NCBI GenBank assembly: GCA_965226555.1
Contig: CBDDDG010000022.1
Span: 192,001-256,000, forward strand
DNA from: Salinispira sp.
GTDB lineage: Bacteria; Spirochaetota; Spirochaetia; DSM-27196; Salinispiraceae
DNA length: 64,000 bases
Direction of reading: 5' to 3'
Of this stretch, positions 6,537-29,200 are shown piece after piece (the first letter of the stretch is position 1; each line of letters opens with the position of its first letter). A program made the position numbers and the translations under genes. Under the pieces are notes generated by a model. The model did not search any database. It had not been told where the DNA came from and saw only the letters and a program-made list of their open reading frames with translations.

Positions 6537-6683
6537 AAAAAACACACATTTTGCAAAATTCTTTCCACATACACAGTCAAAAATGACCGTTTACCCGTCA
6601 CAGATATAGAGGAGAGAATTCACCATGGGACCATGTCGCCATGGGAGCTCCCCTATTCAGAAAAAAACGTTCAGGAGGATTAT

Positions 6684-9654: not shown

Positions 9655-9728
9655 AACTTACAAATCCTTGTGAAATACTTACTTGAATTGAATGCGGGGG
9701 TAGGATATGGTAGGAGCAGGTGTACAGT

Positions 9729-10394
9729 ATGTCTTCAATAAAGGCGGTTGCTTTTGACATTGACGGAACTCTTTATCCGAACTCCCGCATGTATGCGGTG
9801 AGCGCAAGTCTTCTTGCGCGGAACCTGAAGCTCTTCCGCGCCTTTTACGCAGTCCGAACAGAATTACGAAATATACGCCCCATCAACAATTTCTACGACA
9901 CCCAAACGATGATGGTTGCAGAAAAAATGGGCAGGAGCGTTGAGGAAACTCAAGCTCTTATTACCGAAGAATTCTATACAAAGTGGGAAAAGGTGTTTCA
10001 TCATGTGAATCTTCATTCCGGTGTTATTGAGACATTTTCATGGTTGGAAAAAAGAGGCATCATCTTGGCTGTGCTTTCCGATTTTCCTGTTGAAACGAAG
10101 CTTAAAATACTTAACATTGAAAATTACTTTCGTGTGGCACTGTGTTCGGAAACAGTCGGCTATCTCAAACCGGCTCCTGAACCCTTCAATGCCCTCCTCG
10201 AAAAACTGAATGTCCCCCCCAAAAACCTCCTGTATGTCGGAAACAGCTATGAGTACGATGTTCAGGGCGCAGCCCGCCTCGGAATACGGACAGCGCACAT
10301 TGCCCGCCGCGCTCCCCCCTGCAGCCCCGCCGATATCACCTTTTCCCGCTATGCTGTTCTGCGTGAATGGCTCAAAAGGCATCTGGAGAAATAA
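9729..10394 (+). CDS. HAD-family hydrolase
   Basis: FDIDGTL, LSD, KP, VGNSYEYDVQGA motifs. Confidence 0.92.
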   Translation: MSSIKAVAFDIDGTLYPNSRMYAVSASLLARNLKLFRAFYAVRTELRNIRPINNFYDTQTMMVAEKMGRSVEETQALITEEFYTKWEKVFHHVNLHSGVIETFSWLEKRGIILAVLSDFPVETKLKILNIENYFRVALCSETVGYLKPAPEPFNALLEKLNVPPKNLLYVGNSYEYDVQGAARLGIRTAHIARRAPPCSPADITFSRYAVLREWLKRHLEK

Positions 10395-10401
10395 CAGAGT
10401 T

Positions 10402-10447
10402 GAAAATTTTGCAAAATACAAAACTTTCTATAAAATGGGAAAATACC
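10402..10447. repeat. Degenerate miniature hairpin element at left edge of defence island
   Basis: GAAAATTTTGC-AAAAT-ACAAAACTTTC followed by TATAAAATGGGAAAATAC, similar to the reverse complement of 60297-60328. Confidence 0.55.
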
Positions 10448-10481
10448 AATTTCGCAGAAAAGAAAATGATGAGAAAGATAA

Positions 10482-11456
10482 TTGAGTGGAAGAAACGTGC
10501 CTGATCAAGAGATGCCACAGAGCAGAAACAACGTATTATTGCAGAATTCTCTCTTTTTTGAATTTCCTGAACAGGAGCAGGGCAGGCGCGCGACAAGGCC
10601 TCAGGCGAAGAGGAAACTTCAGGTAGCTAATGGATACCTTCTTAATTTCGATAACATAACACGTATTTTGAGCGCGGTTTGGGAGAATCGCTCATTGAAT
10701 AGAATTGGTCGAGCGGTTCTCGTGGAGTCAACCGGACTACCGAATAATCACGCACAGTGTCTTGTAAGTATGGCCTCCGCCATGGGATTAATTCAGCCAA
10801 TTGATGCAAGGCCTACCGCGTTTGGTTCTCTGGTAGCAAGCAACGATATGTTCTTTGAACGGCAGGGCACCCTCGAATGGTGTCACTACCGCGGAGCAGG
10901 ATCAATGCGGAACCTCGTATGGTTCGATACATTTAACCGGATAGTTCACGAGAATGAGCCGCAAACACACCGGCAGTGGAGCGCATGGTTCCGGTCGGAA
11001 TTGGCGGGGCAATATAGCGATCGGACGCTCCAGAAAGTTGAACGCGAGGTTCGCTTTGTCATCAATGCCTATCTGGAACAGAAACTCAAAACGCTTGAAA
11101 TTCTGGAATTGGGCGAAGGTGATGTAATAGTGCAGCGGAGACACCGGCAGATCGAGCATTTGATATTTGCGGCAATGCTCTACGACTTCATTGAGGCGCA
11201 GGGATGCAGGACCTTTGAAATTGCGAAATTGACGCGACTGCCGGGCAGTCCTGCCCTTGTGTTTGGATTAGATGCGGATTCAATGCGGTCGCTGGTCGAA
11301 GCTCTTCATGCGGAAGGGCTGGCACGTTACGAAACAACCCACAATTTGGATCAGATCCGGCTGATTCCGGGTTTCAGATCGGAAGAATTTCTCAGCGCGT
11401 ACTATGAAAAACGCCAACCCACAAGGGACAATGACCCCGGAGTTAGTCGTGGCTGA
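10482..11456 (+). CDS. DUF4007-like protein (BREX/Ssp-associated)
   Basis: PTAFGSLV..NDMFFE..GTLEWCHY..VWFDTFN pattern; first gene of the island; start could be ATG 10512. Confidence 0.7.
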   Translation: MSGRNVPDQEMPQSRNNVLLQNSLFFEFPEQEQGRRATRPQAKRKLQVANGYLLNFDNITRILSAVWENRSLNRIGRAVLVESTGLPNNHAQCLVSMASAMGLIQPIDARPTAFGSLVASNDMFFERQGTLEWCHYRGAGSMRNLVWFDTFNRIVHENEPQTHRQWSAWFRSELAGQYSDRTLQKVEREVRFVINAYLEQKLKTLEILELGEGDVIVQRRHRQIEHLIFAAMLYDFIEAQGCRTFEIAKLTRLPGSPALVFGLDADSMRSLVEALHAEGLARYETTHNLDQIRLIPGFRSEEFLSAYYEKRQPTRDNDPGVSRG

Positions 11457-11916
11457 CAGTATTGATGTTATTACATTCGCGCGGGGCATATCGGCGAGGA
11501 AGCGCGGACGAGCTTGCGCAATTATGACTTATGAATATACCGAACAGCGTGACTGGGCAGCGAAGTTGGCGAGGTTGACTGACTTGGAGCACGTTGATGT
11601 TCTTGAGCTGTTCTATGAGGATGAGCAACTGGGGAATAATTTGTATTTTTACTCGCCGGAAGGCTTGTTTTCCCTGCTTCAGGATCGTCTGAAACAGGGG
11701 AACACTGCTATTGTATCGGGCATTGAATTTCTCAAGGCAAGTTGGAGCGGTCAAAAGAACAGCGCGGAGGAATTCGCGGCGTGTCTGGAGATGTGGCAGG
11801 GAAACCCCGCGTTGCTGTTCGTCATGCAATACGACAAGGCTATTGCCGAACATCCCTTCCGCCGATTCCGACAGCATACCTTCATCATCGATCAGAGGGA
11901 GACAATTGCTCTATGA
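11449..11916 (+). CDS. Small BrxF/BrxB-like degenerate P-loop-fold protein
   Basis: ~155 aa, translationally coupled to both neighbours; VDVLELF and AIVSGIEFL segments resemble BrxF; no intact Walker A. Confidence 0.45.
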   Translation: MADSIDVITFARGISARKRGRACAIMTYEYTEQRDWAAKLARLTDLEHVDVLELFYEDEQLGNNLYFYSPEGLFSLLQDRLKQGNTAIVSGIEFLKASWSGQKNSAEEFAACLEMWQGNPALLFVMQYDKAIAEHPFRRFRQHTFIIDQRETIAL

Positions 11917-14900
11917 AGAATGCCGGAATGTTCAGCGCGCTGTTTATTAATTCACTCAGGAAAAAGGTGTCGATGGATGATGCTGCATCCGGCCGTATGA
12001 CGGTACTTGCCCATTCCTTGCAGATGTATGAAATAAGCGATTCCGATGATGTGTGGAATGCGTTCCTGAAGCAGGCAGTGAGCTACTTGGAGTTCGTGCC
12101 TCCCCCGCGAAGGAGAGAGCGCCGGCTATTTCCGCTCTATGAAGACTGGAAGTGCAACAATTGTGTTAGCGTACTTATTGCGGCGCCCGGGAACAGCGAT
12201 CTCGATTCTTATGATGTGGGACAATTTTATCCGGGTAAGCTCATCCGCGAGCTTCGCAAACGTTCGCTGAGTTGGGGCATACTTACAAACGGAAAACTGT
12301 GGCGCCTGTACTCCGCCAGAAGCTCCCGTCCCTTTGAAGATTATGTTGAGCTCGATCTATCATCAACATTGAAAGAAAACGATGAGACAGAATACGCCTT
12401 GTTTGAACATTTCTTCCACCGGGACTCATTTGTCTCTGACGAAGAAAAAAACACGGAGCTGCCCTCATGCCGTTTACATGCGGACCGGCGCGCATCGGAA
12501 GGTATGCTTGACGAGCTGGTCAAAAAACCCTTTCTTGCTCAAGTGGATGAAGTACTTCGGTGTATCTGCAATGGATTCATCAGCGACACGCGAAAGCCCG
12601 GAGAGGAGTACACGGAGGAGAATTGCAGAGAAATTTTCGAGAGCGCGGTCACGCTGATCTACCGAACGCTTTTTCTGTTCTACGCCGAATCTCGCAGGCT
12701 CCTTCCTTCCGATCCTGAGAAGGCCGATCTTTATTGGCGGCATTCAATTAGAGCCCTCTGCGAAGAGTCCCTGAAGTTTCGTTGGGGTGAACGGCGCGAC
12801 AACAATGAATATGACCTGTGGCAGCATTTGAAGGAATTGACCGTTGCCGTGAACAACGGAGATCCCGAGTACGGAATTATGGGATACAACGGCGGGCTAT
12901 TTGATGATGAAGAAGAACGGTTTCTGCGCGATCATCGCTTACGGAACGACTTTCTGTCCCGAGCGCTGTACCTGTTGGCCTATGTGGATCCCCGCGATAA
13001 CAACAAAAATCGTGAGTACGCTATTCCCTACGAGGATCTGGAGATCAGGCATTTGGGTGGGCTCTATGAGAATATTCTGGAGTACACAGTGCTAGTGGCC
13101 GATGCGGATCGAATTCGGCGTCAGACCGGCAAAGGCATAGAGATTATGCTTGCTGAGGGACAGACAAAACGGCGCGGTGACAGCATTATAAAAAAAGGAG
13201 AAGTGTATTTTGGAGAGTCCTCGCTGGAACGGAAGCAGACCGGATCGTACTATACGCCGGAATCGCTGATTCGCTTTCTGAATGAGAAATCAATTGTCGT
13301 ACCGCTTATGGAACGTTTTGAAGCTGCGTATCGGGAGCGTTTCAATGCCTTCAAACAGGAGGCTCTTGAAAGTATTGACCCGGGAACACGGCGAGGCGCG
13401 GCGCAGGCGGGAGCGGAGTTAGTTAGCCGTTTTGCCGAGGAGGAACTTCTCTCCTATACCGTATGCGATCCGGCAATGGGCAGCGGGCATTTTCTGGTCG
13501 ACGCGACCAATCAGATGGCAGGAATCGTTATAACACTCCTTGCGGAGTTGCCGCATGTCGCTGGCATGTCGAGCGCAATTTCCAACAACCCAAATTTCTG
13601 GCGGCGGCGTGTTACTCGGCGCTGCATTTATGGGGTCGATTTAAATCTGCTGGCGGTAAACCTCGCAAAACTGTCGCTCTGGCTCAATTGCTTTGCGAGC
13701 GATCACAAACTCACCTTCCTCGACCACCATGTGCGATGCGGAAACAGCTTAATTGGCATTCGCAATGTGAAGAATCTGAGGCAGATTCCAAAGCGCGGGA
13801 ACGACAGGAAAAACAAGAAGAATGATGAAGGCGACAGTCTCTTCAATGTCGATGATCTTTCTGCCGCGCTGACCGAGGCAGCCGGAGGAATCGCTGGCAT
13901 TGCCCGAATTAATGAGGATGACACCGACCGTCAACGGGAGTCCCTGCGCGAAGCGGAAAAAACGTTGGCGCGAGTCCGCCCCCTTGCGGATATATACACG
14001 GCATATGTAATGAATCCCACTATTCTCCTTGACGAATACCGCCAGTTGTTCACGAAACTTGCCTCGGGTGAGGATGCATCGTCATCGCTCAATTTGGAAT
14101 TGTCGGAGATTTACCGGCAGGCGCGGGAGCTCAGCGCGCGGCACAACTACTTCCACTGGCCTCTGGTCTTTCCCAATGTCTTCGGTTCAGAGGGAAGTGG
14201 AGGTTTTAATGCGACAGTGGGCAACCCGCCATGGGACGTTTTGCAGGCGAATACCCAAGAGTTCTACGTTAACTACGATCCGCAATTCCGGAAATACAAA
14301 AAGCAGGATGCTCTACAGTCCATAAGGGATCTCCATCTGCAGTACCCATCACTCTCCGAACATTGGATAGCGTACCAGAAGGGATTCCAGGAATCTGCAA
14401 CCTTCTGCAAGGAACCAGCTGTATATAGGAGTCTCATAAACGGAAAAATCAACCTTTATAAGGCATTTCTTGAGCGTTTTTTCCAGCTCCTCAGTGCGGG
14501 CGGACGCATGGGGCTCATAGTACCCAGTGGTATTTACACCGACAAAGGCTGCCAACCCCTGCGGGAGTTGTTCTTTGAGAGGAGTTCCGTAGAATTTCTG
14601 TATGGGTTTGAAAATCGGTATCCAATGGTGTTCAATTCTGTTGACAGTCGCCTCAAGTTCGTGCTTTTCGGCGCGCGCAGGGGCGGGACAACCGAGCGTT
14701 TTCGCTGCGCGTTTATGGAACATGATCCTGAGCGGCTCCCTTTCATTGACCGCAATGCGCTCCATACGAACATCGAACAGGTACGAAGGTTCTCGCCAAA
14801 TACCCTGAGCATTATGGAGTTCAAAAACCAGCGTGATATTGACGTCACAACGAAAATATACGGAAACTGGCCGCTTCTTGGAGAAAAAATTGAGGGAACA

Positions 14901-15854
14901 TGGAACGCGCGGTTTCGACAGGAACTGAACATGACAAGTGACAGTCATTTGTTCAAAACCACCCCAACGGAGCACCCGCTCTACGAGGGCAAAATGATCT
15001 GGCACTTCGACAGTGAATTCGCTCCGCCGCAGTACTGGCTGGACAGGAAAGAAGTGACCGCGTCCCTTGGCGAGACGGCCTATGAGGGCGAGCATTACCG
15101 GGTGGGTTTTCGGAATATTGCGATGGGTACGAATGAGAGAACGCTCATCGCAACGCTTATTCCTCCGAGATGTTGGAGCGGTAACTCTCTCTCAATGATC
15201 AGTCCTCGCGAGAGCCATCAATTATCGGACAGGCCAAATGAGTTCGTGTCAATGTACCTTGCTGCTGTTCTTTCTTCGCTTGTTGTCGATTTCATCATCC
15301 GTCAGAAAGTGACAAGCAATATGAGTTTTTTTTATATGAAGACTCTCCCCGTTCCGCGAAAATTTACGACAGTTAGCGGGGACATTGCCCGCGCCATTGT
15401 TGCGCGATCCGCTCGTCTCATTGCGACATCGGCAAAGTATGCGAATATCTGGCGCGCGCTCTTCCGAGAGGAATGGAGCAGGCCGGAATTCTGGTATTCC
15501 GCTGAATTACCGCAGAATACATACGGACCTGCCCACGAACAGGAGATTCGCGAGCGCATTCAGCGTAATGCCATTAAGCTCACGAATACATGGGAGCCTC
15601 ACTGCGGCGTTCATGAAAGGCGCCATGACCGCCGCGATACTGGCGACCGAGCGCAGCTCCGCGCGGAGATTGATGCCTACGCTGCCCATCTATACGAACT
15701 CTCACGGGAAGACTTTACCCATATTTTAGACACCTTTTCCGTACTTAAGAACAAGGAAATAAAGGCCTTCGGCGAGTACATAACCAGACGAAAATGCTTA
15801 GAAGAATATGAAAGAATGTCGGAAAGAATACGACCAAATAGAGATGGGGTATAA
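11913..15854 (+). CDS. Eco57I/type IIG-like N6-adenine DNA methyltransferase (PglX-like)
   Basis: GILTNGKLWRLY, YNGGLF, TGSYYTP, DPAMGSGHFL (motif I), IYGVDLN, GNPPW (motif IV), C-terminal TRD; ATGA overlap with upstream stop. Confidence 0.9.
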   Translation: MKNAGMFSALFINSLRKKVSMDDAASGRMTVLAHSLQMYEISDSDDVWNAFLKQAVSYLEFVPPPRRRERRLFPLYEDWKCNNCVSVLIAAPGNSDLDSYDVGQFYPGKLIRELRKRSLSWGILTNGKLWRLYSARSSRPFEDYVELDLSSTLKENDETEYALFEHFFHRDSFVSDEEKNTELPSCRLHADRRASEGMLDELVKKPFLAQVDEVLRCICNGFISDTRKPGEEYTEENCREIFESAVTLIYRTLFLFYAESRRLLPSDPEKADLYWRHSIRALCEESLKFRWGERRDNNEYDLWQHLKELTVAVNNGDPEYGIMGYNGGLFDDEEERFLRDHRLRNDFLSRALYLLAYVDPRDNNKNREYAIPYEDLEIRHLGGLYENILEYTVLVADADRIRRQTGKGIEIMLAEGQTKRRGDSIIKKGEVYFGESSLERKQTGSYYTPESLIRFLNEKSIVVPLMERFEAAYRERFNAFKQEALESIDPGTRRGAAQAGAELVSRFAEEELLSYTVCDPAMGSGHFLVDATNQMAGIVITLLAELPHVAGMSSAISNNPNFWRRRVTRRCIYGVDLNLLAVNLAKLSLWLNCFASDHKLTFLDHHVRCGNSLIGIRNVKNLRQIPKRGNDRKNKKNDEGDSLFNVDDLSAALTEAAGGIAGIARINEDDTDRQRESLREAEKTLARVRPLADIYTAYVMNPTILLDEYRQLFTKLASGEDASSSLNLELSEIYRQARELSARHNYFHWPLVFPNVFGSEGSGGFNATVGNPPWDVLQANTQEFYVNYDPQFRKYKKQDALQSIRDLHLQYPSLSEHWIAYQKGFQESATFCKEPAVYRSLINGKINLYKAFLERFFQLLSAGGRMGLIVPSGIYTDKGCQPLRELFFERSSVEFLYGFENRYPMVFNSVDSRLKFVLFGARRGGTTERFRCAFMEHDPERLPFIDRNALHTNIEQVRRFSPNTLSIMEFKNQRDIDVTTKIYGNWPLLGEKIEGTWNARFRQELNMTSDSHLFKTTPTEHPLYEGKMIWHFDSEFAPPQYWLDRKEVTASLGETAYEGEHYRVGFRNIAMGTNERTLIATLIPPRCWSGNSLSMISPRESHQLSDRPNEFVSMYLAAVLSSLVVDFIIRQKVTSNMSFFYMKTLPVPRKFTTVSGDIARAIVARSARLIATSAKYANIWRALFREEWSRPEFWYSAELPQNTYGPAHEQEIRERIQRNAIKLTNTWEPHCGVHERRHDRRDTGDRAQLRAEIDAYAAHLYELSREDFTHILDTFSVLKNKEIKAFGEYITRRKCLEEYERMSERIRPNRDGV

Positions 15855-15856
15855 TT

Positions 15857-16456
15857 ATGACTCAAACCGCAAACTCAATTTTTACCATAGGATACGCGGC
15901 TCTTGCAATAGAACGATTCATTGAGTTACTGCGCTTGTATTGCATAACTATTTTGGCCGATGTCAGATCTCAACCCTACAGTCGTTACAGTCCGGAATAC
16001 TCCCGTGATCCGCTTAAGGTTTTGTTGGAAAAATCCGGTATTCGGTACGTCTTCATGGGAAAAGAACTTGGCGCGCGGCGCGATGAACCGGAATGTTACG
16101 AGGATAGCAAAGCGCGGTACGACCTCATCGTCAAAACTCCGGCTTTTCGGGAAGGAATCGCGCGTCTCAAAAGGGGGGCGCTAAAGTATCGCATTGCGCT
16201 TTTATGCGCCGAAAAAGACCCTATAACCTGCCATCGTTCAATACTGGTTTCCCGGGAATTGTCTCGCGAAGGTGTCAATGTCCAACATATTCGCCATGAT
16301 TGCTCTCTCGAATCACAGCAACAATTAGAGCAACGTTTACTCAAATTACATGAAAGGGATCAGGTAGATCTTTTCGATAACAAGTCAACGCGCCTCAATT
16401 ATGTATATACACAGCAGGCGGACTATATTGCATTTGTCCGTGAAGGAGAAGAATGA
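15857..16456 (+). CDS. DUF488 family protein
   Basis: IFTIGY, LADVRSQPYS, ELG, LLCAEKDPITCHR. Confidence 0.88.
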   Translation: MTQTANSIFTIGYAALAIERFIELLRLYCITILADVRSQPYSRYSPEYSRDPLKVLLEKSGIRYVFMGKELGARRDEPECYEDSKARYDLIVKTPAFREGIARLKRGALKYRIALLCAEKDPITCHRSILVSRELSREGVNVQHIRHDCSLESQQQLEQRLLKLHERDQVDLFDNKSTRLNYVYTQQADYIAFVREGEE

Positions 16457-16457
16457 T

Positions 16458-16892
16458 ATGATGCTATTTACCATTGGTTTCACAAAGACAACTGCCGAAT
16501 GTTTCTTTAATCGTCTCAAGAAGGCTGGTGTGCAAAGACTTATTGATGTTCGACTAAACAATCGTTCGCAATTAGCCGGATTTGCGAAACAGCAGGATTT
16601 GGAGTATTTCCTGAAGGAAATTGTGGGCATTGACTACATATACAGACCTGAATGGACGCCGACTCAGGATATTCTCGATGCATATAAAAAGCACAAAGGA
16701 AACTGGAATGTTTATGAAGTTACATTCAATGAGCTGATAGGCGACCGACACATTGAGCAATATACAGACGTAGGAATGCTCAATAATGCCTGCCTGCTGT
16801 GCAGTGAAAATACAGCAGAACATTGTCATCGTCGGCTTGTAGCTGAATATCTGCAAAAAAAATTTGAGGAGCTCGAAATATGTCATTTGTAG
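16458..16892 (+). CDS. DUF488 family protein (second, short type)
   Basis: LFTIGFT, LIDVRL, LLCSENTAEHCHRRL; AAGGAG RBS. Confidence 0.88.
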   Translation: MMLFTIGFTKTTAECFFNRLKKAGVQRLIDVRLNNRSQLAGFAKQQDLEYFLKEIVGIDYIYRPEWTPTQDILDAYKKHKGNWNVYEVTFNELIGDRHIEQYTDVGMLNNACLLCSENTAEHCHRRLVAEYLQKKFEELEICHL

Positions 16893-17528
16893 TCGAACTG
16901 GTTGTGCTGGCCAACTCCCGCAGACCCAACGGACGGTGCATTGCGGGTATCAATCGGAAAACGAGTCAATGGATACGTCCAGTTGGAGCAGATGGCCTCG
17001 GCGAGGTTCCCGATAATCTGCGGAAAATTAATGGAAAAGAACCGAATATACTGGATATTGTACGAATGGAACTCGAAGAATCGGCAGAAACATACCGGTT
17101 TCAGATGGAAAACCGTAACATTGTAAACAAACCCTGGTCTTTTGTTGGAAAGGCCGCTATTGCTGATGTCCTGCCGTATTGCTGTCAGGATCGACACGTT
17201 TTTTTTAACCATCATATTCGTATCCCCCATTCCGATCTTTGCGGCAATTCTTCATGGAATTCTTCTCTCCAGTTATGGGAAGTGGAGGATTTTAGGTGCG
17301 AATACAATGAATATAAAAAATGGAAAGGCACGTTCTCTATTCCGAGTGGGGATGAGCTGTCTCTCAGCATCACGGATATTGACTACCTAACGCGTCTTAA
17401 CTCGGGCTATAAACCCGGTGAACGCGCCCTACTACTCATAAGTCTGGGGGGGTCCTCATCAACCTGAATATGAAGGGTGGACAAAGATGTATTGCTGGAA
17501 ACTCATTGCGGGGGTAATTGAGCTATGA
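16880..17528 (+). pseudogene. Dual OB-fold-like protein, frameshifted in G7 near 3' end
   Basis: LANSR..GRCIAG..WIRPV N-terminus; removing one G from 17446-17452 gives ...LGGPHQPEYEGWTKMYCWKLIAGVIEL* ending at 17528. Confidence 0.7.
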
Positions 17529-17544
17529 CGATAGGGAGAATGAC

Positions 17545-20500
17545 ATGGCAAAAATAAAAGATGTTGTGCGCATTAAGGGCGGATACGTAAATTTCGTAGA
17601 GCTCAAGAGCGCATTCGAAGAATCTCAGCAAAATGCCGACAGAATGGCAATGTACCGCCCCACCAAAGCGCACCGCAGAGCCTTTGAGCAAATATCACGA
17701 GGACTCTTTCACCCCAACAACAAGAAATTCTACCTCCTGAGCGGCTCCTATGGAACCGGTAAGTCGCACCTCTGCCTCATGCTCGCCAATATCCTGAGCC
17801 GAGCGAGCGGAGACCCGACAATTGCCGGTTTCTACGAGAACTACAGCAAACTAAATTCTGAATCCGCAAAGCATTTGAAAAACATTCGCAAGGACGGACA
17901 GTACCTTGTCGCTATATGCGACTACCATTCCGGCAAACGCTTTGAGGACATTGTGCTGAAGGCGGTGTTGAATGCCTGTAAGTCTATGGGGCTCAATGCC
18001 CAGGTGGAAACGGAGTTCAATGAAGCGGAACGTCAGCTTGCGGCATGGGAGGAGCTGGGAAACTCGGGAGGCATTCGGAATTTCTACCAGGATTTTAGCG
18101 CTGCGCTTACTTCGGTATCTCCGGCTTCCACGGTGGAGCAACTTCGCCGTTCCCTGAAGGACTATGACTCGCAGGCTCTGGAACAATTCCGGCTCGCCTT
18201 CAGGGAAATGATGGGAGGGATCGAATTTCAGGCTACGTCAGGAAATCTCATTCCTATTATTCAAAAGCTTGTCAACAGTCAGGAGTTCAGGAATCGATTC
18301 AAAGGTCTCGCGGTGTTCTTCGATGAGTTTGGCTTCACATTGGAGAAAGCCAACTACTCCAAAGACATTCTGCAAGGCTTTATGGAGACCATCTGCAAAA
18401 ATGAACCGAACGTTATGTTCATTGGGTGCATTCACAAAGACTTCAAATCCTATGCCGACCGCTTCAGCCAGGCCGATGCCAATGTTATGAGCGCCCGTAT
18501 TACTCAGGTGAGTCTGCTGAACGAAGGTATTGAGGAAATCATTGAGGCCATTGTGGAGACCGATAAACAGAGTCCCGTTTGGAAAGAGAACATTGAAGCA
18601 AAAATACACATATTTGATCGGCTTAGTCCTCAGTGTAAATCGCTCAATCTTTTCCCATGGATCGATAATGCTGCGCCTGTTCTGGAGAATATTTACGGCG
18701 TGCATCCCATGGCTCTTTCATGTCTGCTTAAACTATCGTCCGAAATTGGCTCGGACGCGCGCAGCGCTTTTACCTTCTTCACTGGTGCCGAAGATGACCG
18801 GGGAGCGTCATATTCGGACTATATTGAACATACCAATATTGTTGTCAATGGCGGTAAGCTTAATCTCTATACCGTCGATAAGCTCGCCATTTTTTTCAGA
18901 GCGATTTGCTGGTTCGAAATTCGGATCTTCGCGAAGGGCAACGGAATGTTGTCAATGGTTACATTGCGAGTATCGATGTGCTTCGCAAGGCAAAACCAAA
19001 TGAACTGGAAGGTTTAGAAGATGATGATCGCCAACAAATTCTGAATCTCCTCCTTATCTATCGCATCTGCCAAATTTCAGCGAATATGGAGAACATTCAG
19101 TTCGGCCTGTACTGTCTGACTTCGCACGAAAAAAAGCGCGTTGTGACTTTACTCAAGGAACTGGAGAAGTACGGAGCGGTGTTTTTCCGGCGACAATCTA
19201 AAACCTATGAGTTGCTTGAAGGTTCAGGCGAAGATCCCTACGATCTCATTGATCGTTTCATTGCCGATAGCTCATTGCATCCGCATGATTCGGTTAAAGC
19301 CTTCCTCGATGATGCCGGATTAAAGAGTTCGGAAGAGTTTGTGGAAGCAAAAGGATTCAACCTGCCCTACACCGATGACAAGCGATTCCGCAGGGAATTT
19401 GTCCGAGCGAAGGATCTTGGCAAGGAACTGTGGGATTCCTTTCAGAAAAAATATGATGATGCCCGCGCGAATCCGAGCAAAAGCTATGAAGGTGTCCTAG
19501 TGTACGCACTCTGTGAAGATGAAGCGGATGTTAACGTTGCCCGCGATGCCGCGAGAATAATTTCATGGGAGCGGCTTGCGGTTTCTGTTCCTCACAATCC
19601 CAAACCCTTCGGCGAGACATTACTCAAAGTTCGGGCCTGTCGTCACTATCTTTCCAGAGATGCGAAGATTAGCGCTCAGACTGAATCGAGAATGCGCGAT
19701 ATTCTAGATAATAAGGACGATGGGGCGCGCGCCACACTGAAAAATACTCTTGACCAAATTTCCGAAGGCAGCGATTCGAGCTGGCACACCGTGAGAGGTT
19801 CAATTCTTGTAGATAAGCCCCAACAGGCGCATCGGCCTGCGGACATGCTCTGCGAGAAACTCTTCAACAAACGCTCGCTCATTAAGCACCCCGATCTCAA
19901 TTTGTGTCACGATGATCGGTGGAAAACCGGTAAAAATAACGCGCTCAAAGATGCGGTCAGGGTCTTGCTGACCGCCGAGCGGGTCATGATCGATAACGGA
20001 AACCCGGACAGCCACGGCGAGAAACGCTACCTTGAAAAGGTGCTGCTGAAAGGTTCCGGCGCGCTCAAAAAGACTGGCGATGATGGGCGAGTAACTTATT
20101 TTACGTGTGAGTCAGATTCCTCAAAACTGAATGATAGTTTTCCGGCGCTGAAGGAGCTCTGCGCAGGGTTGGAGAATAGTAGTTCCGGGCAAAACTTCAA
20201 TGCGGGGGCATTTCTCGCCAAAGTTCGCAACGCCCCTTATGGCGCGGGGGGAACCGCCCTCATTCTGGCTTTTGCCCATGTTATTCGGGCCTACGGAGAG
20301 CGCCTGAGTTTCTTCAAAGATTCAATGAAAATGCTGGAATTGCCCATACAGTCATATACGGATATTGAATCAATTGTGGATAATTCCGCATCTCAGGTCG
20401 TCATTTCCATTCGAAACATTAGCGCTGAACAATTCGATCTTGTCAATCGTATTGCAATATCTGCGGGCGAGTCGGAGCTCAGGCATGGCGAAAAACGATC

Positions 20501-21566
20501 TCTCAAGAATGCGTATGGGGCGGTCATGGGCTGGTACTTGCAATTACCGAATGTTTCGCGAATTGTGAAATTATATGGTTTGAATGATCGGAAGCGTCTG
20601 GCAGCGCTCATGGAGCTGTTGGACAGCGAGATCGGTCAGTCAGATTATTTCGGACTCCTCCTTGAGCGCCTGCCCGGTCTGTACCAAACAGGAAGCGATG
20701 TCGCCACATTGACCGATTCCGAGGTAACGCTGGTTGCCAGAGAATTCAAACGTGACATAGCAGAGCTTGAATCGGCCGAGCAGATTATTATGGGTATGGT
20801 CGCGACTTCTCTCTGTGAGGTATTCGGTGTTGAGGGAGACATAATTGAGTGCGAGAAGGTTATGACCGACTGGTACAAGAATCTCAATTATTCCCAGCGC
20901 GATGCCGGACACTACAATGACAGCGATACTGCCTCCCTCATCTCCTGTCTTGGGCAGGATAAGTCCTTTGCAAAAATTATTGGGACAGAACTTCCAACAG
21001 ATTTTGGATTTGACGCGGTCCGTAATTGGAACTCTCTCCACATTCGCGATTATGCGGAAAAGGTTGCGAAGGCGAAGGAGGAAATTGACCGCGCGAGAAT
21101 TCAGGTGCCAAAACCTGCGATAGAGCAGCCCTCGCTTGAAATTGGGGAGAAACAGAGCGCTACCCTCAATATTCCATCGGGCGCGGCAATGCTTGTTTAC
21201 ACGGTCGATGGCTCTGATCCGAAGACATCGAAGACAGCGCAACGGGCAGAGGCAAATATGGATCTTGCGGAGCTTCTTGCGGGTGCGCCGAATGTGCAAG
21301 CGAAGATTCGCGCGCTGGACAATAAAGGGAATTATAGCGATTCTGTTGATGTCGAGCTCATCGACAAGCAACGCAAATATGAATTGAAAATCAATAATGA
21401 CATGTACGCGCCGGAGGCGACCTTCAAATGTCCGAATGATCTGGATGGGTTCGTTACCGTACTTAAATCTCTTCTGCAATTCGCAATCGATAAATCGTTG
21501 CTCAGCGCGGAAGCAGCCAGCGAAGTCGAAGCCTCGCTGAACAAGCACCCCTCGAAGGAATCGTGA
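17545..21566 (+). pseudogene. brxC: BrxC/PglY-like large P-loop ATPase, split by 1-nt frameshift at T7 (18890-18896)
   Basis: Walker A GSYGTGKS, Walker B FFDEFG, YGVHP; ORFs 17545-19017 and 18906-21566 join into ~1340 aa with one extra T; lies directly upstream of pglZ. Confidence 0.72.
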
Positions 21567-23962
21567 AAATGCAGCCTTTTCGAATACATTCCATAGGCGA
21601 TCTCGACCTGCCGATTCCCGAAACCGCGCTTGTGGTAGACAATGACGGCTCCTATGTGCAGGCATGCCATGCAACGCGGACGGCAATTCAGAATAAAGAT
21701 GAATTGAATCTGTGGGTTCGCGCGCCTCACCATGCCGAGTGGCTCAAAAATTACTTCGCCCAACTGCGAGTAGACGTGGAGGGACTTGAGGAAACCGCCC
21801 GTACCGTACTCGTCAAAAAATGGTCAGTGACCATTCCCAACTGGGTGTCCAATGAAGACATTATTAAACAGAAATTGCTCAATCTCGACATTAAGGCTGG
21901 CGCGGGCAAGACCTTTGAGGCAGCGCTGATCAATACACTCATTAGTGTGGATATATCGCCTGCTATTCCCGATAATTCTGCGGTGAGGGAACTCATTGCC
22001 GCTCTCACCGATAATCGCTATGCCGTCGCTAGGAAGGAATTCCCGATTCTGGAGGAGACTCTCAAACGGTTGGCAACAACGTGGCGGGCGCGGGCCCGCG
22101 CTGGCTGGCTCGCAGATCTGTGTGAATACATTCCAGAGAATGGTAAAATAGCATGGCGCCTGCTCTCCGCAGTTGCGATTCTCCAGTCGTATCCGAAGGA
22201 ATTACTTGATCGGGTATTGCCCAACGGACAGGCATCGCTCGCTCGTAAAATACCGCGCGATGTAACTGAATACCTGCCTCTGGAACCCGAAGCCAGGGAG
22301 GAATCTCTGACTCAAATTAAACTTATCTTCTCTGAATGTGAGCCAAAAATAAATTCTCAAAGTGAGTTTCGAAAGGTAGTCTCATGGGTGTCGGGAAGGA
22401 CGGCTGAGGAATATCGTTTTATTGAAAACATACTCCGAAGCGGTCGCTTCGAACCGACCGCAGATGACATTCGGCTTACGCGCGAAACGTTTAAAAGCTC
22501 CTCTGAAGTGCGGCCCAGCCGCCTCGAAGCGCTCAAGTACCTCGCGCGCCCGGCCTATCCGTTACTGGAGAACAATGAAAAACTCCCGAACTCCACAGAC
22601 TGGATTCGTTGGACAACCGAAAAATACGCTCAGTACCGCAACTGGCAAGTGAAAAATAACCGTTACGATGCGGAATTGGAAAAAACCGTCTGCCAATTCT
22701 CGGACTGGTACATTGATCACTATGCCGCTGTTCAATCCGATTCCAACGCAGCTCTTGCGCAGGCGCTGAATTTATTGAATGCGAACGAGCTTGAGAATCG
22801 ACTGACAATTCTCTTAATGGTGGATTGCCTGCCTGTTACCTTCTTCGGACTTATTGACCATGCCCTTAAAACCTCCGGTTTCAAGCGGCATGACCTAAGC
22901 TATCGCTACGCCGCGCTTCCCACAGTGACGGACTTCAACAAAGCGGCAGTGATCTCTGGAAACCCCGGTCGAAATAAAAATACCTATTCCAAGATCCTCA
23001 CTGAACGATCTGAGGCCGACTGGGGAGGAGCAAAAGTTCATTACGTCTCAACGCTACGGAATCTGTCAAAACTTACTATTGGCGCGGAAGCATCGGTAAT
23101 TCTGTTTAATCATATTGAGGGCGATGAAATATTACATTCCGATGTCGAAGCGAAAAACCGCGCCTACGAGGAAGATCTCGCTCGTTCCTATACGCAACTT
23201 TCTGAAGCTCTCTTCGATATCTGCGATCGATGGGACGGGGCGAAGGATCGTGTTTCAATTATCCTTCTGACCGATCATGGCGCGTGCCGTGCTCTTAAGG
23301 AAGAGATGAGAAATTTCGCCTCAAGGGTTGTGAGTAAGCTTTTTAATGACGAAAAATATCGTTTTGCCTCCATGACGAGCGAGCAGGCTAATGAGATTCC
23401 AGAAAACCTTTGGGATACAGGTTATCGCTTCACGGAGCCGTTCTCCCGCGACACTACTACGCATTTTTTGCCTCGCGGACATAATACGGTACGCAAGACC
23501 GGAGCTGTTGGGGGGTATGCGCATGGCGGAGTTGCTCCTGAGGAAGTTATTGTGCCTATGGCGCGCTATGCTCTGCTCTCTACTGAGTGGAAGAGACCAT
23601 TCGTCCGATGCTTGAATCTCAAAATGTCTGCGAATGGGCAGAAGGCGCAGTTCTATATACAGCGAGTTGTCAATGTCGAAGTGGAAATACAGAATCCGAA
23701 TTCTGTCCCGCTTCAACCGACAGCTCTTGAGTTACTTTCGCCCGATGCAAGGGTTAAGGGAGCGCGGTTGTGTAATATAGCCCCTGAATCAACGGGTATA
23801 CTGTCCATTGATCTCTACTTCCAGAAAACCGCGCAGAATGCTGAAAATCTTGAATTACAGATTCGCTATACCATAAGCGGGGAAGAATACGAAAAAAATC
23901 TTGTTTTTTCGGCCGAATTCATGTCGGCGATGTCTGACGGATTCTCATTAAAAAATCTCTAA
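21563..23962 (+). CDS. pglZ: PglZ-domain alkaline-phosphatase-fold protein
   Basis: LLMVDCL, LPTVT..NK, TDHG, HGG..PEEVIVP motifs. Confidence 0.88.
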   Translation: MKMQPFRIHSIGDLDLPIPETALVVDNDGSYVQACHATRTAIQNKDELNLWVRAPHHAEWLKNYFAQLRVDVEGLEETARTVLVKKWSVTIPNWVSNEDIIKQKLLNLDIKAGAGKTFEAALINTLISVDISPAIPDNSAVRELIAALTDNRYAVARKEFPILEETLKRLATTWRARARAGWLADLCEYIPENGKIAWRLLSAVAILQSYPKELLDRVLPNGQASLARKIPRDVTEYLPLEPEAREESLTQIKLIFSECEPKINSQSEFRKVVSWVSGRTAEEYRFIENILRSGRFEPTADDIRLTRETFKSSSEVRPSRLEALKYLARPAYPLLENNEKLPNSTDWIRWTTEKYAQYRNWQVKNNRYDAELEKTVCQFSDWYIDHYAAVQSDSNAALAQALNLLNANELENRLTILLMVDCLPVTFFGLIDHALKTSGFKRHDLSYRYAALPTVTDFNKAAVISGNPGRNKNTYSKILTERSEADWGGAKVHYVSTLRNLSKLTIGAEASVILFNHIEGDEILHSDVEAKNRAYEEDLARSYTQLSEALFDICDRWDGAKDRVSIILLTDHGACRALKEEMRNFASRVVSKLFNDEKYRFASMTSEQANEIPENLWDTGYRFTEPFSRDTTTHFLPRGHNTVRKTGAVGGYAHGGVAPEEVIVPMARYALLSTEWKRPFVRCLNLKMSANGQKAQFYIQRVVNVEVEIQNPNSVPLQPTALELLSPDARVKGARLCNIAPESTGILSIDLYFQKTAQNAENLELQIRYTISGEEYEKNLVFSAEFMSAMSDGFSLKNL

Positions 23963-25947
23963 TGGAGGAACCATATATGCAATCCTTTGAACGTAAAGCG
24001 CAGGACTACTACGGTGAGGTAATAATTAACAAAGGGCTTATGAGAAAAGCCGGATTTGGCGCCCGGGCGATTCCCGTTTATGTGGGCGAGTGGATCATCA
24101 GTCAGTTCATGGATGGCGGAGAGCTGACCGAAGATGGACGCGCGGAAATTGTTACTACCATTTCCAAATTCCTCCCGCAGAAGGCTGACAAGAATACGAT
24201 TCTAAATCGACTCATGGATCAGGAAGAAGTTCGTATTCTCGATGACTTCAGGGTTAATGTTAATCTTGCGAAGAACACCCACGAGCTCAGTATCCCATTA
24301 CTCGATATCAGCAATGGTATGGTACAGAAAGATATTATCAATCAAAACCCAATGCTCTTAAAAACCGGGATGTGGGGACTCGGGACGCTCAGATATGTAC
24401 CGCCTGACGATGAAATCAAAGAAGGGCAGATCTGGATGATGGACTTCAAACCTTTTCAGTCTCCCGGCGTAGATATTGACTACTATCGTGACTCACGGAG
24501 GCACTTCGAGACAGAAGAATGGATTGATCTGCTTGTGTCGAGCTGCCAGTTTAATCCGGAAATACTCAGACTTCCCCAGAAGCTTTTGTTGCTCAGCCGA
24601 ATCATCCCGCTCGTGGAACCGAGAACTAACATAACCGAACTTGCGCCAAAAGGAACAGGGAAATCATTTGTTTTCGACAACATCAGTCGCTACGCGACCG
24701 TCATTCCAGGCGGGAAACTTTCTGCGCCGTCTCTGTTCTTCAACAGCAATACTAGGCAATTGGGACTCATTCCGCGTTACGATGTTGTTGTTGTCGATGA
24801 GATTCAGAAAATTCATACCGATGCTACCGGTGAAGCAATGGCTGCGCTGAAAATGTATTTAGAGAGCGGACGGTACCGAAGAGCCACTGGAGATCTCGGT
24901 ACGTCAGAATCTGGATTTGTCATGTTGGGAAATATTACCCTCGGAATGAATCGCCTTCCGTTGTACGAGAGCGATGGAATTTTCAAAGAGTTGCCGAAGG
25001 CTCTTCAGGAGTCAGCGTTCATTGACCGCATTCACGGATTAATCGAAGGCTGGTACATGCCCCGTGTGTCTCGGCACACACCATCGAAAACCTGCGGCTT
25101 CAAGGGCGATTTCTTCAGTGAAGTCTTACACGAACTTCGGGTTGATCTGAAATACGCCGATTTTGTGACACAACATCTTGCGCGCCTCGAATGCGACGAT
25201 ATGCGCGATAACAAAGCGATTGCGCGATTGGCTGAAGGTTTTCTGAAACTTCTCTTTCCAGATTTGAACGTAACAGATGAGAATTTTAACATATTCTGCC
25301 TCAACCCTGCAATCCGGATGCGTCAGCAGATTCGAGATGAGCTCTCGAAGATCGACCATGAATTCAAATGGGTTACCATTAAGAGCAATTTACCGGACGA
25401 GTTCCAGCTCTCTCACCCATCTGAACGTCCCGATCTGGAGGGCGAGAAAGCAAAAACCGATCCTCTTAATCCGAGTCGTAAGCCCGATGAGCGGACTGTG
25501 GAAATTACCGAAGGTCAACAAGGCATCTCATTCGAAAAACTCTTCCTGCCGTATCTCAAAGGCGCCAGAGAAATTCGCATTTACGATCCGTATATCCGGT
25601 ACCAATACCAAGTATTCAATCTTATGAACCTTTGCGAGATTCTTGAACCCCGTAATGCGTCCATCAAAGTTTCGCTTATTACTACCGCCGATCAGTTCAG
25701 CGAAGACGAAATTACCGCAAAACTTGGCGAAGTAAAAAAAGGATTGAGCCGCGATGACATTGAATTCAATTTTACTTTCGATCCGAACCTCCATGATCGA
25801 TGGATCAAAACCGACACCGGCTGGCGAATCACATTGGGCAGGGGGCTGGATATCTTTCAGAAGCCCGCTGACAAGTTCACACTGGGGTTCATGAATCAGA
25901 CGAAGAGAAAATGCAAGGAAACAAGTGTGGTTTATACGCGAGGATAA
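23962..25947 (+). CDS. brxL: BrxL-like AAA+/MCM-type ATPase with C-terminal MIT_C/PLD-like domain
   Basis: ELAPKGTGKSF, VVVDEIQ, AFIDRIHG; C-terminus IYDPYIR..HDRWIKTDTGWRITLGRGLDIFQ; no Lon protease domain seen. Confidence 0.82.
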   Translation: MEEPYMQSFERKAQDYYGEVIINKGLMRKAGFGARAIPVYVGEWIISQFMDGGELTEDGRAEIVTTISKFLPQKADKNTILNRLMDQEEVRILDDFRVNVNLAKNTHELSIPLLDISNGMVQKDIINQNPMLLKTGMWGLGTLRYVPPDDEIKEGQIWMMDFKPFQSPGVDIDYYRDSRRHFETEEWIDLLVSSCQFNPEILRLPQKLLLLSRIIPLVEPRTNITELAPKGTGKSFVFDNISRYATVIPGGKLSAPSLFFNSNTRQLGLIPRYDVVVVDEIQKIHTDATGEAMAALKMYLESGRYRRATGDLGTSESGFVMLGNITLGMNRLPLYESDGIFKELPKALQESAFIDRIHGLIEGWYMPRVSRHTPSKTCGFKGDFFSEVLHELRVDLKYADFVTQHLARLECDDMRDNKAIARLAEGFLKLLFPDLNVTDENFNIFCLNPAIRMRQQIRDELSKIDHEFKWVTIKSNLPDEFQLSHPSERPDLEGEKAKTDPLNPSRKPDERTVEITEGQQGISFEKLFLPYLKGAREIRIYDPYIRYQYQVFNLMNLCEILEPRNASIKVSLITTADQFSEDEITAKLGEVKKGLSRDDIEFNFTFDPNLHDRWIKTDTGWRITLGRGLDIFQKPADKFTLGFMNQTKRKCKETSVVYTRG

Positions 25948-26239
25948 CAGAAAGCCTGATCTGCGTTCACGCATTTCTGCTTTCCACTTGCAAAAAGTCC
26001 AAAAAAATGCCAGCAAAACGTCCTCGCTTATCATAAATAACTGCATCATCGCAGATCAATGCAAGCATCCGCTCATCTATAAGTCCATGAGCAGGTCAAA
26101 TATTATTATCCCAGACTGAATCCGCTGGAATCGCGGAATGCGGAATATATTGACAAGTTTTGAACAATAGCGCAAAGTAAAAGTTTTGCAAAACCTTATA
26201 TAATAGAGCAGACCTATTGCGGTCATTGGGAGAGGAACT

Positions 26240-29200
26240 ATGGTATTCGCGCTTGGCGACCTTCTCGTTCTGGGTGTGGTCCTAATTGTCATATGTATTT
26301 TCCGTTATATCGACCGCGGCAACAGATCCCTGGAAAAGGTAAGGAACTTTGTTGACCGCGCAGGAGAGAACTTAGCTCGTATCGCTGAAGATAAGGCACA
26401 GCAGTTGAAGGATCTTGCCATCAATGTCGAAATCCATCAGCAATCGGCAATGAAAGCTATTGAGCAAATTGAAATTTCTGCGGAAGAGCTCGGTAAACGC
26501 ACATCCTATATTGAAGAAATACAGTCACGAATAAATCAATACGATCTTGCCCTCAGGCAGCTGGTCGATATGACGAATCAGGCTGAACGGAACATTAAGG
26601 GAATACAGGACGAATCCGCCTATGTGGATACTGTCGGCCGGAGAATCAAAGAATCGCGCAAGCATATTGAATCGCTTGAAAAATCTGTTTCAGAGATCAT
26701 TAACGATTTTTCTGCGAGAAACAATCAGCAGCTTGAAAAGATCCGTGAGTCTGTGTTCAAAACGGGGAAGGAAACTGCCCTTGAACTTGAACAGAAAGTA
26801 GAAAGCGCCGGAAATCGGGCGCAGAAACTTCTTGCGGCATTTCAGACAGATGCCGAAAACACTCAGCAGAGAATTACGGGCAGTGTTGAAACAGCGCAGA
26901 CAAAAATTCAGGAAATAACGGAAACCATGCAGACTGATGCGGCAGACATTCAAGATACTATCCAGAACCTTGCCGACACCACCATCAAATCAGTGGACAA
27001 TTCCTTCAGCGAATATAAGCGGGATTTCGAAAACGTAGAAATATCCTTTCGCGAAGGCCTGAATCGGGTTGCTGAAAAGGCCCGGAAATTTGAGTTCGAA
27101 TCATTTGAGATACTTCAGGCGGAACTGGAAACGAAACGCGCGAACGTTTCAGAACAGTTCAAAAACAAAATGGATGAACAGGAGCAGGATTTTCAGGAAC
27201 AGTTCATTGATTATACGCGAAAATCGAAGGAACAGTATGAGCAAATTTCCGACAGTCTGAAAGAACATACCGAAGTACACCGCAGGAACCTCAATGAACT
27301 TGAAACCGAGATGCAGAATTCCATTGAGGTATTAAAGGCCAATTACACTACGAAACATGAAGAAATACAGGTATCCATTTCCGAGAAGGCCTCCGGGATG
27401 GAGAAAAGAATACTTGGAGACCTTGAGCAGAACCTCATCGATTACGAGGGCAGTATTACTCACCGTCTTTCCCGTCTGGATGAGGTCGGAAAGCAGCTGG
27501 ATGGGCTTGAGCAGGTACTTCAGAAAAATATGGAACATGTCAGCGCAAAACTTGAATCGGAGGCGCAGTCCGTCGGTGAGCGTGTGCGGAAAAAATACGA
27601 TGAAGACATTACCCGCCTCCGCGGCGATCTGGATGAGATCAGCGGACATGTAACAGCGCAGAGAAATGAAATAGATACGCTCAGGGAAGAAAGCCGTTCA
27701 AACATTATTGAACAATTGGAGGCCTTCGAGCGGGAATTTTTCACCGACCTTCAGGAGCGCAGGAAGAATCTTGATGCCCGGCTGGAAAAATGGACGGAAA
27801 GTTTTGACGGTGCACTTGAGGAACTGCGCTCCGATACCGAAGGTGAACGCAGCCTGCTCGAAAAGAAATATCTGGAAGATATTGGAACGGGAATGGATGC
27901 CTTGCGCAGCGGGATGACAGATCGCTTCAGTGAACTTCAGACCGATTTTCAGGAACGGGAGTCAGTTATTCATGAAAATCTGAATATCCTTACCGAGCGA
28001 ATCAACAATGGCCAGTCGGCAGTCGATGAACATCTTGAGCGAGCCCGGCAGCAGTCCATGAATACTCTCAACAGCCGCTGTCAGGAAATTCAGAATACAA
28101 TTGCCGACAGAATGAAGAATATGCAGGATGATATGGAGGGTAATCTCAGAAATATGGATGAGCTCATCCTGAAGCAGGAGAATGAAATTACGGTTCTTCA
28201 GGATGGCATACGTTCCGATGTATCAGCATGGCAAAATACAATTCATCAACAACTCAAAACAGATAAGGATGATATTGAAAGCGAAATGGCGGCCTTCCGA
28301 ATACGTATAAATGACGTTCTCCTGGCCATAAAGGAAGAATATAACGAGGAAAAAACCGGAATACTTGCCGAAGAGCGGACACTCAAGGACAAACTTTTCA
28401 CCCAACTGGCTGATAACAAAAGCAGCATGGAAAAGGAAGTTGATGTATTCCGCGCTAAATTCAGCGACACCCTGAACTCACTGCAGGCAGAATACAATAA
28501 TGAGAAGAATGACATTATTGCCGGGGCTGTTGAAGCAAGAAAACAACTGCAGTCCGATATTCGGAATGCTTCCGAGAAGCTGACAGCGCTGCGCTCCGAA
28601 CTGGAGGAAAAAAAGGAAACTGCCCTTGAACGCTTCAACCTCGACTATACGTCTTTCATGCAGGATTTTCTGAAGCAGAAAGATGATGCCAGCCGTGAGT
28701 TCAGTGCCTCCATCCGCGATTTCCGTGAGTTTGTCGGAGCAACTCGTAAGGAATTTGAAGGAACACAGAAACGGCTCATCGGTGGACTCACCGAAGAAAT
28801 TAAAACTGTTGAACTGAATATCAGAGAGATAGAGAAAAAACAGAAATCTTTTCTTCAGCAGACGAAGCTCTTTGACCGGGCAGATACATTGAAGCAGGGG
28901 CTCATTGAGGATATTAACGCGCTCCGAAATGAGGTCAATAAGTTCCAGAGTGAGCGGAAACAGATCGGCGAATACGAGAATGAATTTCTGCGCATCCAGA
29001 AACTTGGAAAGGAAGCGCATGAGAAGATGCTCCATTTTTCAGTGGAACAGCGTAAGCTTGAAAATGTTGAAGAGAGCTATAAACGTATTATGGCCCTTTC
29101 AGGAAAGCTGGACAAGCGCTTGGAAAGTGTCAACCTCAAGCACGACAATGTTCAGCAGATGCAGCTGGCGATCCGGAATTTGAGTGATCTTCAGAAGGAA

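Follow-up and report, generated by a model that had tools for sequence, protein, structure and literature searches.

A candidate BREX subtype in Salinispira sp. that pairs an SspC/type 4-side backbone with an adenine methylase

The analyzed sequence, positions 10482–25947 of a 64,000-nt stretch (hereafter the window) of contig CBDDDG010000022.1 from Salinispira sp., holds a six-gene operon of the bacteriophage exclusion (BREX) family. The genes encode a DUF4007 protein (A), a small P-loop protein (B), an N6-adenine methylase (X), the ATPase BrxC (C), PglZ (Z), and the ATPase BrxL (L), and they lie in the order A-B-X-C-Z-L with three cargo genes between X and C. The operon is a real, conserved, and horizontally acquired BREX variant, and it looks like an unnamed BREX subtype. 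Our interpretation, which we regard as likely, is that this six-gene operon joins BrxC, BrxL, and DUF4007 proteins of the SspC/type 4 side to a methylase and marks self DNA by adenine methylation, not by sulfur. All island genes lie on the + strand where a first-pass annotation of this DNA had placed them (Table 1), and the co-oriented, coupled run that it described was confirmed: the overlaps at A/B, B/X, C/Z, and Z/L are 8, 4, 4, and 1 nt, respectively, and the first DUF488 cargo gene has gaps of 1–2 nt on its two sides. The DUF4007 gene starts somewhere in 10482–10512, and the small open reading frame (ORF), with its stop at 11916, likely starts at a GTG (11449) preceded by GGAG. Family scans of the island proteins detected no 3'-phosphoadenosine-5'-phosphosulfate (PAPS) reductase, desulfurase, or type 3 helicase.

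Conservation and insertion of the operon

The N-terminal half of BrxC had 442 long homologs; the best 120 were 67–81% identical, and almost all of these lack a name or are listed as hypothetical. We examined 144 loci (132 groups at 97% DNA identity), 64 of them from genomes and 80 being the best of 158 metagenome loci. The order A-B-X-C-Z-L was present in all 38 loci showing all six genes (34 groups after dereplication). Full-length BrxC was found in 95 loci; among these, pglZ and brxL directly followed brxC wherever there was enough downstream sequence (72/72), and a methylase match lay upstream in 45 of the 46 loci that extend 6 kb or more in that direction and in 55 of 58 at 4 kb. In each of the 43 loci where the methylase was complete and 1.4 kb of sequence preceded it, both small genes (A and B) lay before it. 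As the first-pass annotation had observed for the island, neither a PAPS reductase nor a desulfurase was found in the 144 loci, and the type 3 core helicase was likewise not seen in them, helicase matches occurring only upstream in L034, L036, and L040. The annotation had also proposed a possibly undescribed subtype with a methylase; the recurrence of the gene order in several phyla, the near-constant methylase, and its codivergence with BrxC (see below) support this.

According to record titles, the carriers belong to more than 10 phyla and are mostly Thermodesulfobacteriota, with some bins being unreliable (L034 and L036 are a single contig under two names). They include complete chromosomes (L010, L029, and L062) and a cultured strain, Desulfosarcina variabilis str. 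Montpellier (L010). A search of a viral collection returned six loci, and only L183, a member of the core clade, was relevant; this contig carries the A-B-X-cargo-C part and hints at one route of spread. In L101 and L056, family members lie directly behind another brxL-ending BREX operon in tandem, the one in L056 being type 1-like.

The genes flanking the island, which encode a HAD hydrolase and a SpiroCoCo protein, are neighbors in seven of the seven relatives where both could be placed, with a spacing of about 85–285 bases in four genomes (G006, G007, G008, and G023) and 1.1–1.3 kb in three (G009, G011, and G012). The island was thus inserted between two genes that are neighbors in relatives. 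A BrxC profile run against 401 genomes of the phylum matched strongly in the Salinispira genome only; the other finds were two Ssp loci. The host bin (26 contigs) is spirochaete-like and contains the SpiroCoCo gene.

Lineage of the backbone and the methylase

In PADLOC, the BrxC ATPase matched SspC (7e-20) ahead of BrxC (3e-8). A BrxC profile search of 1.84 billion representatives gave a close tier of four clusters (769–879 bits) and a sister tier of full-length proteins (about 285–500 bits), with hosts including Halanaerobium and a Thermococci archaeon, before the next drop to 170 bits. In the BrxC trees, of which we quote the quick mixture-model tree, both tiers formed one clade (support 99–100, starred) on the SspC/type 4 side of a split (99, starred) from types 1 and 3. 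A constraint placing BrxC with type 1 was rejected by the approximately unbiased test (p-AU 0.0066) and one placing it with type 4 was not rejected (p-AU 0.449), though a clade shared with type 4 BrxC was not found either. The BrxL ATPase grouped with type 4 BrxL (100, starred). These trees agree with the type 4-like backbone proposed at first pass. The same proposal had listed the last protein as a BrxL-like ATPase; it is not a bare ATPase, since residues 521–659 match PF16565 (PLD-like, E 1e-43) and form a C-terminal HKD-type domain. The HDR motif of this domain occurs in 69 of 75 complete relatives (63 by pattern and six read from printed misses); a short form with no tail was seen in four of the 75 and in the sister-tier locus L145.

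PglZ keeps its metal and catalytic motifs in an alignment with type 1, 3, and 4 PglZ, and its tree gave an own clade (98, starred) outside type 1, the rows for L212 and L218 being disregarded because they are not PglZ. It was loosely sister (89, unstarred) to the sulfur-type loci of Pseudanabaena, Annamia, and Thermomicrobium. Built with references from types 1, 3, and 4, the PglZ and BrxC trees, a comparison suggested by the annotation, place the backbone outside type 1. The trees are unrooted and therefore give no direction of writer replacement; of the annotation's statement that methylation takes the place of the type 4 module, the presence of a methylase instead of sulfur genes stands, but the direction is unsupported.

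By its sequence, the methylase is not PglX. Against 12 PglX proteins, it scored no more than 40 bits, and three of the 12 were matched at E 1e-3, compared with 308–377 bits (26–30% identity over ~1200 aa) against four methylases of DISARM-1-like loci; its PADLOC matches were IIG (4e-83) and DrmMI (2e-78). These BLAST scores were used instead of a methylase tree, because the tree held only three of the 12 PglX rows owing to the motif pattern and had p-AU 0.02 and long branches. Searched by sequence against solved structures, the methylase had no matches. The NPPW motif is present in 32 of 32 methylases. In the operon, the methylase, PglZ, and Walker motifs are intact. Across 31 complete loci, distances of the methylase core correlated with those of BrxC (rho 0.83, Mantel p 0.001) and equally tracked PglZ and the small protein (rho 0.82–0.83), while the correlation with BrxC fell to a rho of 0.10 for the recognition region (residues 1060–1220). 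Even pairs with 94–95% identical BrxC shared only 32–47% identity in that region. The putative target-recognition region, at about residues 1000–1200, thus appears variable, and the divergence pattern is as expected of a resident specificity subunit that would exchange its target. The annotation had considered a stand-alone type IIG gene inserted by chance next to a backbone that otherwise occurs apart from it; we reject this, given co-occurrence in 45 of 46 loci together with codivergence with BrxC.

The N-terminal domain of the methylase was modeled with a predicted local distance difference test (pLDDT) score of 85, and its fold matched the nuclease domains of DrdV, BpuSI, and HsdR weakly (best E 0.05). 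At the positions expected, from type IIG enzymes, to be those of the nuclease D and E-x-K motifs, 30 relatives hold G/V and Y-L-A/V/I. This nuclease-fold domain is therefore likely inactive. In the sister tier, an N6-methylase lies upstream of DUF4007 in two loci: that of L145, the only locus returned by a plasmid search for sister-clade loci, is 30% identical to the Salinispira methylase, and that of L194 is TaqI-like and cut off.

The small protein was modeled as a P-loop/AAA+ fold (pLDDT 93) with eroded Walker motifs; its counterpart in L145 retains Walker A and B. It had no match in the family scans and nothing under E 0.001 in Foldseek, and its profile matched none of BrxB, BrxF, and the NCBIfam BREX models directly. 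Its structural match to BrxB (Z 6.6, root mean square deviation 3.9, 137 aligned) was tied with those to unrelated AAA+ ATPases. The BrxF-like label given at first pass thus found no direct match and an indirect link through the sister tier, whose small proteins are matched at 97.8% and in turn match BrxF at 88%. A predicted complex of the small protein with PglZ(1–330) scored 0.89 (best control 0.04, contact agreement 100%, partner pLDDT 89), with the predicted contact at PglZ residues 27–70; the score mark that it passed is also passed by 116 of 157 solved pairs and two of 215 mismatched pairs. Because a like complex (BrxB-PglZ, 9zll) has already been solved, this pass may show likeness, not binding.

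DUF4007 is called a BrxA homolog in the main text of PMC12839542. The DUF4007 protein exceeds 400 aa in 23 of 44 complete relatives (for example, L009:1981-3468 and L010:863-2278), and the four long proteins scanned all have an N-terminal RadC-N (UPF0758) domain.

Relation to known systems and alternative readings

Judged by profile models and gene content, the operon fails membership of BREX types 1–6, BR, and BRC. Only BrxL passes a BREX subtype cut-off, here and in intact relatives, which agrees with the first-pass view that the island fits no classical type; no single described subtype covers all its proteins. The type 4 PglZ model (cut-off 140) gave 35.8 here and 39.9 and 44.7 in relatives, with the best PglZ model nonetheless being BREX-4. 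Among the PglX models, NF033452 scored 35.5 against a cut-off of 500 (35–52 including relatives), the type 5 model gave no match, and the type 6 model scored 18.4 against 900; the type 1 BrxC model NF033441 gave either no match or 24 against 400. The island proteins had no PADLOC or NCBIfam match to the type 2 PglW kinase, BrxD, or BrxHI, and HerA/FtsK was absent from the island, a single HerA being found as cargo in L002. The parts of the BREX superfamily present here are PglZ, a BrxC/PglY-type ATPase, the BrxA-like DUF4007 protein, and, by its modeled fold and predicted PglZ contact, the BrxB-like small protein. The functional parts A, B, C, X, Z, and L are the type 1 set, and what is new is therefore the lineage, the gene order, and the methylase family.

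BREX type 4 (brxP-brxC-pglZ-brxL, phosphorothioate), as presented in the available text of PMC12914056 and PMC12839542, resembles the operon in DUF4007, an SspC-like BrxC, contiguous C-Z-L, and the BrxL clade. It differs in its PAPS reductase/desulfurase, whereas the operon has an N6-methylase, a stand-alone small P-loop gene, an HKD-type BrxL tail, and its own BrxC clade. The main text of PMC12839542 defines type 4 without a methylase and reports a PAPS reductase in 406 of 457 type 4 taxa (absent in 51). Loci of Pseudanabaena (L149) and Thermomicrobium (L151), of the sspBCDB-brxCZL type named in the available part of PMC12914056, share the DUF4007-small-C-Z-L order and the sister PglZ but carry an SspD-type PAPS reductase, a cysteine desulfurase, a short BrxL, and a small ORF with no profile match to that of the operon. 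In BRC, for which the same part of PMC12839542 gives HerA/FtsK as universal, DUF4007, a STAND NTPase, BrxC, and PglZ recur, and type 3 BR shares PglZ and an inactive STAND; unlike both, the operon core has no HerA/FtsK, TGT, GNAT, or helicase and has full-length PglZ and BrxL. In Dnd-related systems with cytosine methylases, described in the available text of PMC10853773, a methylase likewise stands in for the sulfur module on a common scanning core, but that core is ABC ATPase-DndE and the methylases are others. BREX type 3 has the BrxHII helicase and PglXI and no BrxL, whereas the operon has BrxL and no core helicase. Homologous methylases, of the DrmMI or type IIG kind, occur in loci that, from gene labels, we take to be like class 1 DISARM (defense island system associated with restriction-modification), where they lie beside SNF2-like and large DEAD/DEAH helicase genes; the operon differs in a core without helicases, in the missing nuclease residues, and in its BREX partners. 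No published description of this subtype was found in the literature searched, whose coverage excludes most subscription papers and the supplement of PMC12839542.

Two further kinds of loci came to light in these comparisons. L164 (G218:C17) is an odd BREX locus with two small genes, a 1278-aa ATPase, a DUF1156/CcrM-like methylase, a type 3-like PglZ, and a short BrxL. In L212 and L218, on Thermales plasmids, brxL lies beside genes for an SNF2-like helicase, a DrmMI-like methylase, and a large DEAD helicase, and pglZ is not recognizable.

The working mode is most likely like that of type 1, carried out by type 4/Ssp-side parts and a non-PglX methylase. In type 1, neither methylation nor restriction proceeds without B, C, X, and Z, and PglZ acts as a nuclease (available text of PMC13326643). 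By analogy, the small protein, BrxC, PglZ, and the methylase would form a B:C:Z:X complex, which in uninfected cells would methylate a short, probably nonpalindromic site set by the variable C-terminal region of the methylase and on incoming unmarked DNA would turn to restriction, in which PglZ would nick or cut. A second effector would be the BrxL motor together with its HKD-type tail, and DUF4007 would tune the DNA binding of BrxC. With its own nuclease-fold domain likely inactive, the methylase would depend on its partner proteins. The slot between the methylase and brxC would hold back-up defense modules, here DUF488-DUF488-dual-OB.

Several points weigh against a methylating BREX subtype of this kind. 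The loci were gathered by two short BrxC patterns and sample only the close clade, and three of them (L086, L139, and L140, with 4–10 kb upstream) have no methylase, the stretch being occupied by cargo. The wider sister clade is represented by just two loci, of which L194 has a methylase of another subfamily. The tree references exclude types 2, 5, and 6, which were checked by models only, and the sister relation of PglZ to the sulfur loci is loose. The assignment of the small protein meets no direct BrxB or BrxF profile match and a BrxB structural score shared with unrelated AAA+ folds, while the call of an inactive nuclease combines missing residues with fold matches that are weak. The mechanism is drawn throughout by analogy with type 1. 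Finally, the same genome bears a full sspABCD locus on another contig (C14), and brxC is frameshifted in this assembly.

The frameshift lies in a T run near 18889. Run X1 agrees with the window, whereas in run X2, from the same sample, an extra T at this site opens the brxC frame. A second frameshift, in a G run near 17446 of the dual-OB gene, is found in both X1 and X2 and is absent from the related population of run X4. On these grounds, the family could be real while some of the population has an inactive or degenerating copy, for example through slippage in the brxC T run, which we consider possible but rather unlikely. The broken brxC in the window and X1 and the dual-OB frameshift common to both runs would fit; the run with open brxC has the deeper coverage (7.7 versus 4.3), the remaining five core genes are intact, and a homopolymer error at low depth is equally likely. 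Such decay would affect this copy without bearing on the family, and a methylating BREX operon is compatible with it.

A rearranged, divergent type 1 BREX, which would need no new subtype and might already sit unnamed in the 2026 survey data, seems improbable. Type 1 (brxA-brxB-brxC-pglX-pglZ-brxL) in its BrxL-HKD variant has the same six roles, the N6-methylase marker, and the HKD-type BrxL tail, which Rakesh and Krishnan call type 1 specific in the available text of PMC12839542; a predicted B:Z contact and cargo inside the operon are further likenesses, and the 51 type 4 taxa without a PAPS reductase would leave room for loci already surveyed. However, the joining of BrxC with type 1 was rejected, the BrxL ATPase groups with type 4, PglZ lies outside the type 1 clade, and the PglX and BrxC model scores are far below the cut-offs. 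The gene order is A-B-X-C-Z-L, DUF4007 stands for BrxA, and the methylase is not PglX; the main text of PMC12839542 states that a methylase is wholly absent from type 4.

Least probable, and in our view very unlikely, is that a type 4-like effector reads sulfur marks that a separate Ssp locus writes in trans, the methylase being an independent restriction-modification gene in a defense hotspot: the SspC/type 4-lineage backbone, the A-B-C-Z-L order of the sulfur-type loci L149 and L151, the Fischerella dnd-brx cluster, whose methylase is treated as possibly independent in the available part of PMC12914056, and, weakly, the sspABCD locus on C14 would suit it, but the methylase holds a fixed position with overlapping stop and start codons, is present in 45 of 46 loci, codiverges with BrxC, PglZ, and the small protein, and has no nuclease catalytic residues, whereas the genuine cargo of the same loci varies.

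Returning to an operon that marks DNA by methylation, we lean slightly toward a broader view, in which an SspC/type 4 core (DUF4007, small STAND, BrxC, PglZ, and BrxL) takes either of two writers, a sulfur module or a nuclease-dead DrmMI/type IIG-like methylase whose recognition domain can be swapped, the latter acquired repeatedly across the wider clade and defining a widespread unnamed subtype. How BREX distinguishes marked from unmarked DNA is a still-open question. Type 4 is defined by sulfur instead of methyl marks, and a lineage with an unrelated methylase suggests a core to which the chemistry of the mark does not matter. If this is true, BREX, Ssp, and DISARM are linked, the two kinds of loci are a natural pair for writer-swap experiments, and exchanging writers on a single backbone would allow a test of what reads the mark. 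The core proteins other than DUF4007 and BrxL score below the curated BREX cut-offs and BrxC relatives are labeled hypothetical, so defense inventories of bacteria from anaerobic sediment and groundwater likely underestimate how common the family is.

Cargo, features of the island, and neighboring sequences

The methylase gene directly adjoins brxC in 25 of 91 loci, and the others hold up to 7.1 kb of cargo between them, amounting to 133 ORFs in 60 families. A Pfam scan of 51 proteins, mostly cargo representatives, gave the names YhcG, GmrSD, AbiE, AAA_21 ATPases, SIR2 with HerA, HEPN, KAP NTPase, Fic, and reverse transcriptase; the slot thus supplies candidate defense genes. The DUF488-DUF488-dual-OB set was ruled out as core, with one DUF488 gene found in only one of the 144 loci, and is exchangeable cargo.

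Table 1 Features of the island in the window
Feature	Position	Strand	Basis or remark
Hairpin repeat copy, just 5' of the operon	10402..10436	+	Appears similar to a sigma-70 promoter
Inserted island extent, HAD hydrolase gene (9720-10394) to SpiroCoCo gene (26240-29737)	10395..26239	.	Flank adjacency in relatives
DUF4007/SspB-family DNA-binding protein, BrxA counterpart	10482..11456	+	PF13182 E 9e-13, over cut-off; PADLOC SspB 4e-9
Small P-loop/AAA+ fold protein, eroded Walker motifs, BrxB/BrxF counterpart	11449..11916	+	Predicted fold; predicted PglZ N-terminus binder
N6-adenine DNA methyltransferase, type IIG/DrmMI-like, 1313 aa	11913..15854	+	DPAMGSGHF at 519, NPPW at 771
Cargo DUF488 protein, PADLOC candidate PDC-M45B	15857..16456	+	PADLOC and Pfam-type family scans
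Cargo DUF488 protein, PADLOC candidate PDC-M45C	16458..16892	+	Family scans
Cargo dual-OB protein, PADLOC candidate PDC-M45A	16880..17528	+	Frameshift near 17446; last ~25 codons out of frame
BrxC/SspC-lineage AAA+ ATPase	17545..21566	+	Frameshift near 18889; ~1345 aa in relatives
PglZ, alkaline-phosphatase-fold metal and catalytic motifs kept	21563..23962	+	Motif alignment
BrxL, type 4-lineage ATPase and C-terminal HKD/PLD-like domain (HDR motif)	23962..25947	+	TIGR02688 over cut-off; PF16565

The same genome holds a complete sspA-sspB-sspC-sspD locus at C14:5485-11737, and a sulfur-marking system thus coexists with the BREX operon. Copies of the hairpin repeat adjoin both the operon and this Ssp locus. 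The repeat is ~35 bases long with inverted arms, usually extended to ~70 bases, and is found genome-wide, with 36 copies at a tolerance of three mismatches and about 100 at a tolerance of 10. It may represent a mobile promoter or a miniature element. Ahead of the island, a single ORF at window positions 9007-9654 (−) fuses a zinc-ribbon start to dehydroquinate synthase fragments and is probably a deletion remnant. Farther upstream, 4034-6292 and 6633-7760 encode a surface protein with fn3 and FG-GAP repeats and an Rpn/YhgA-like protein, respectively.

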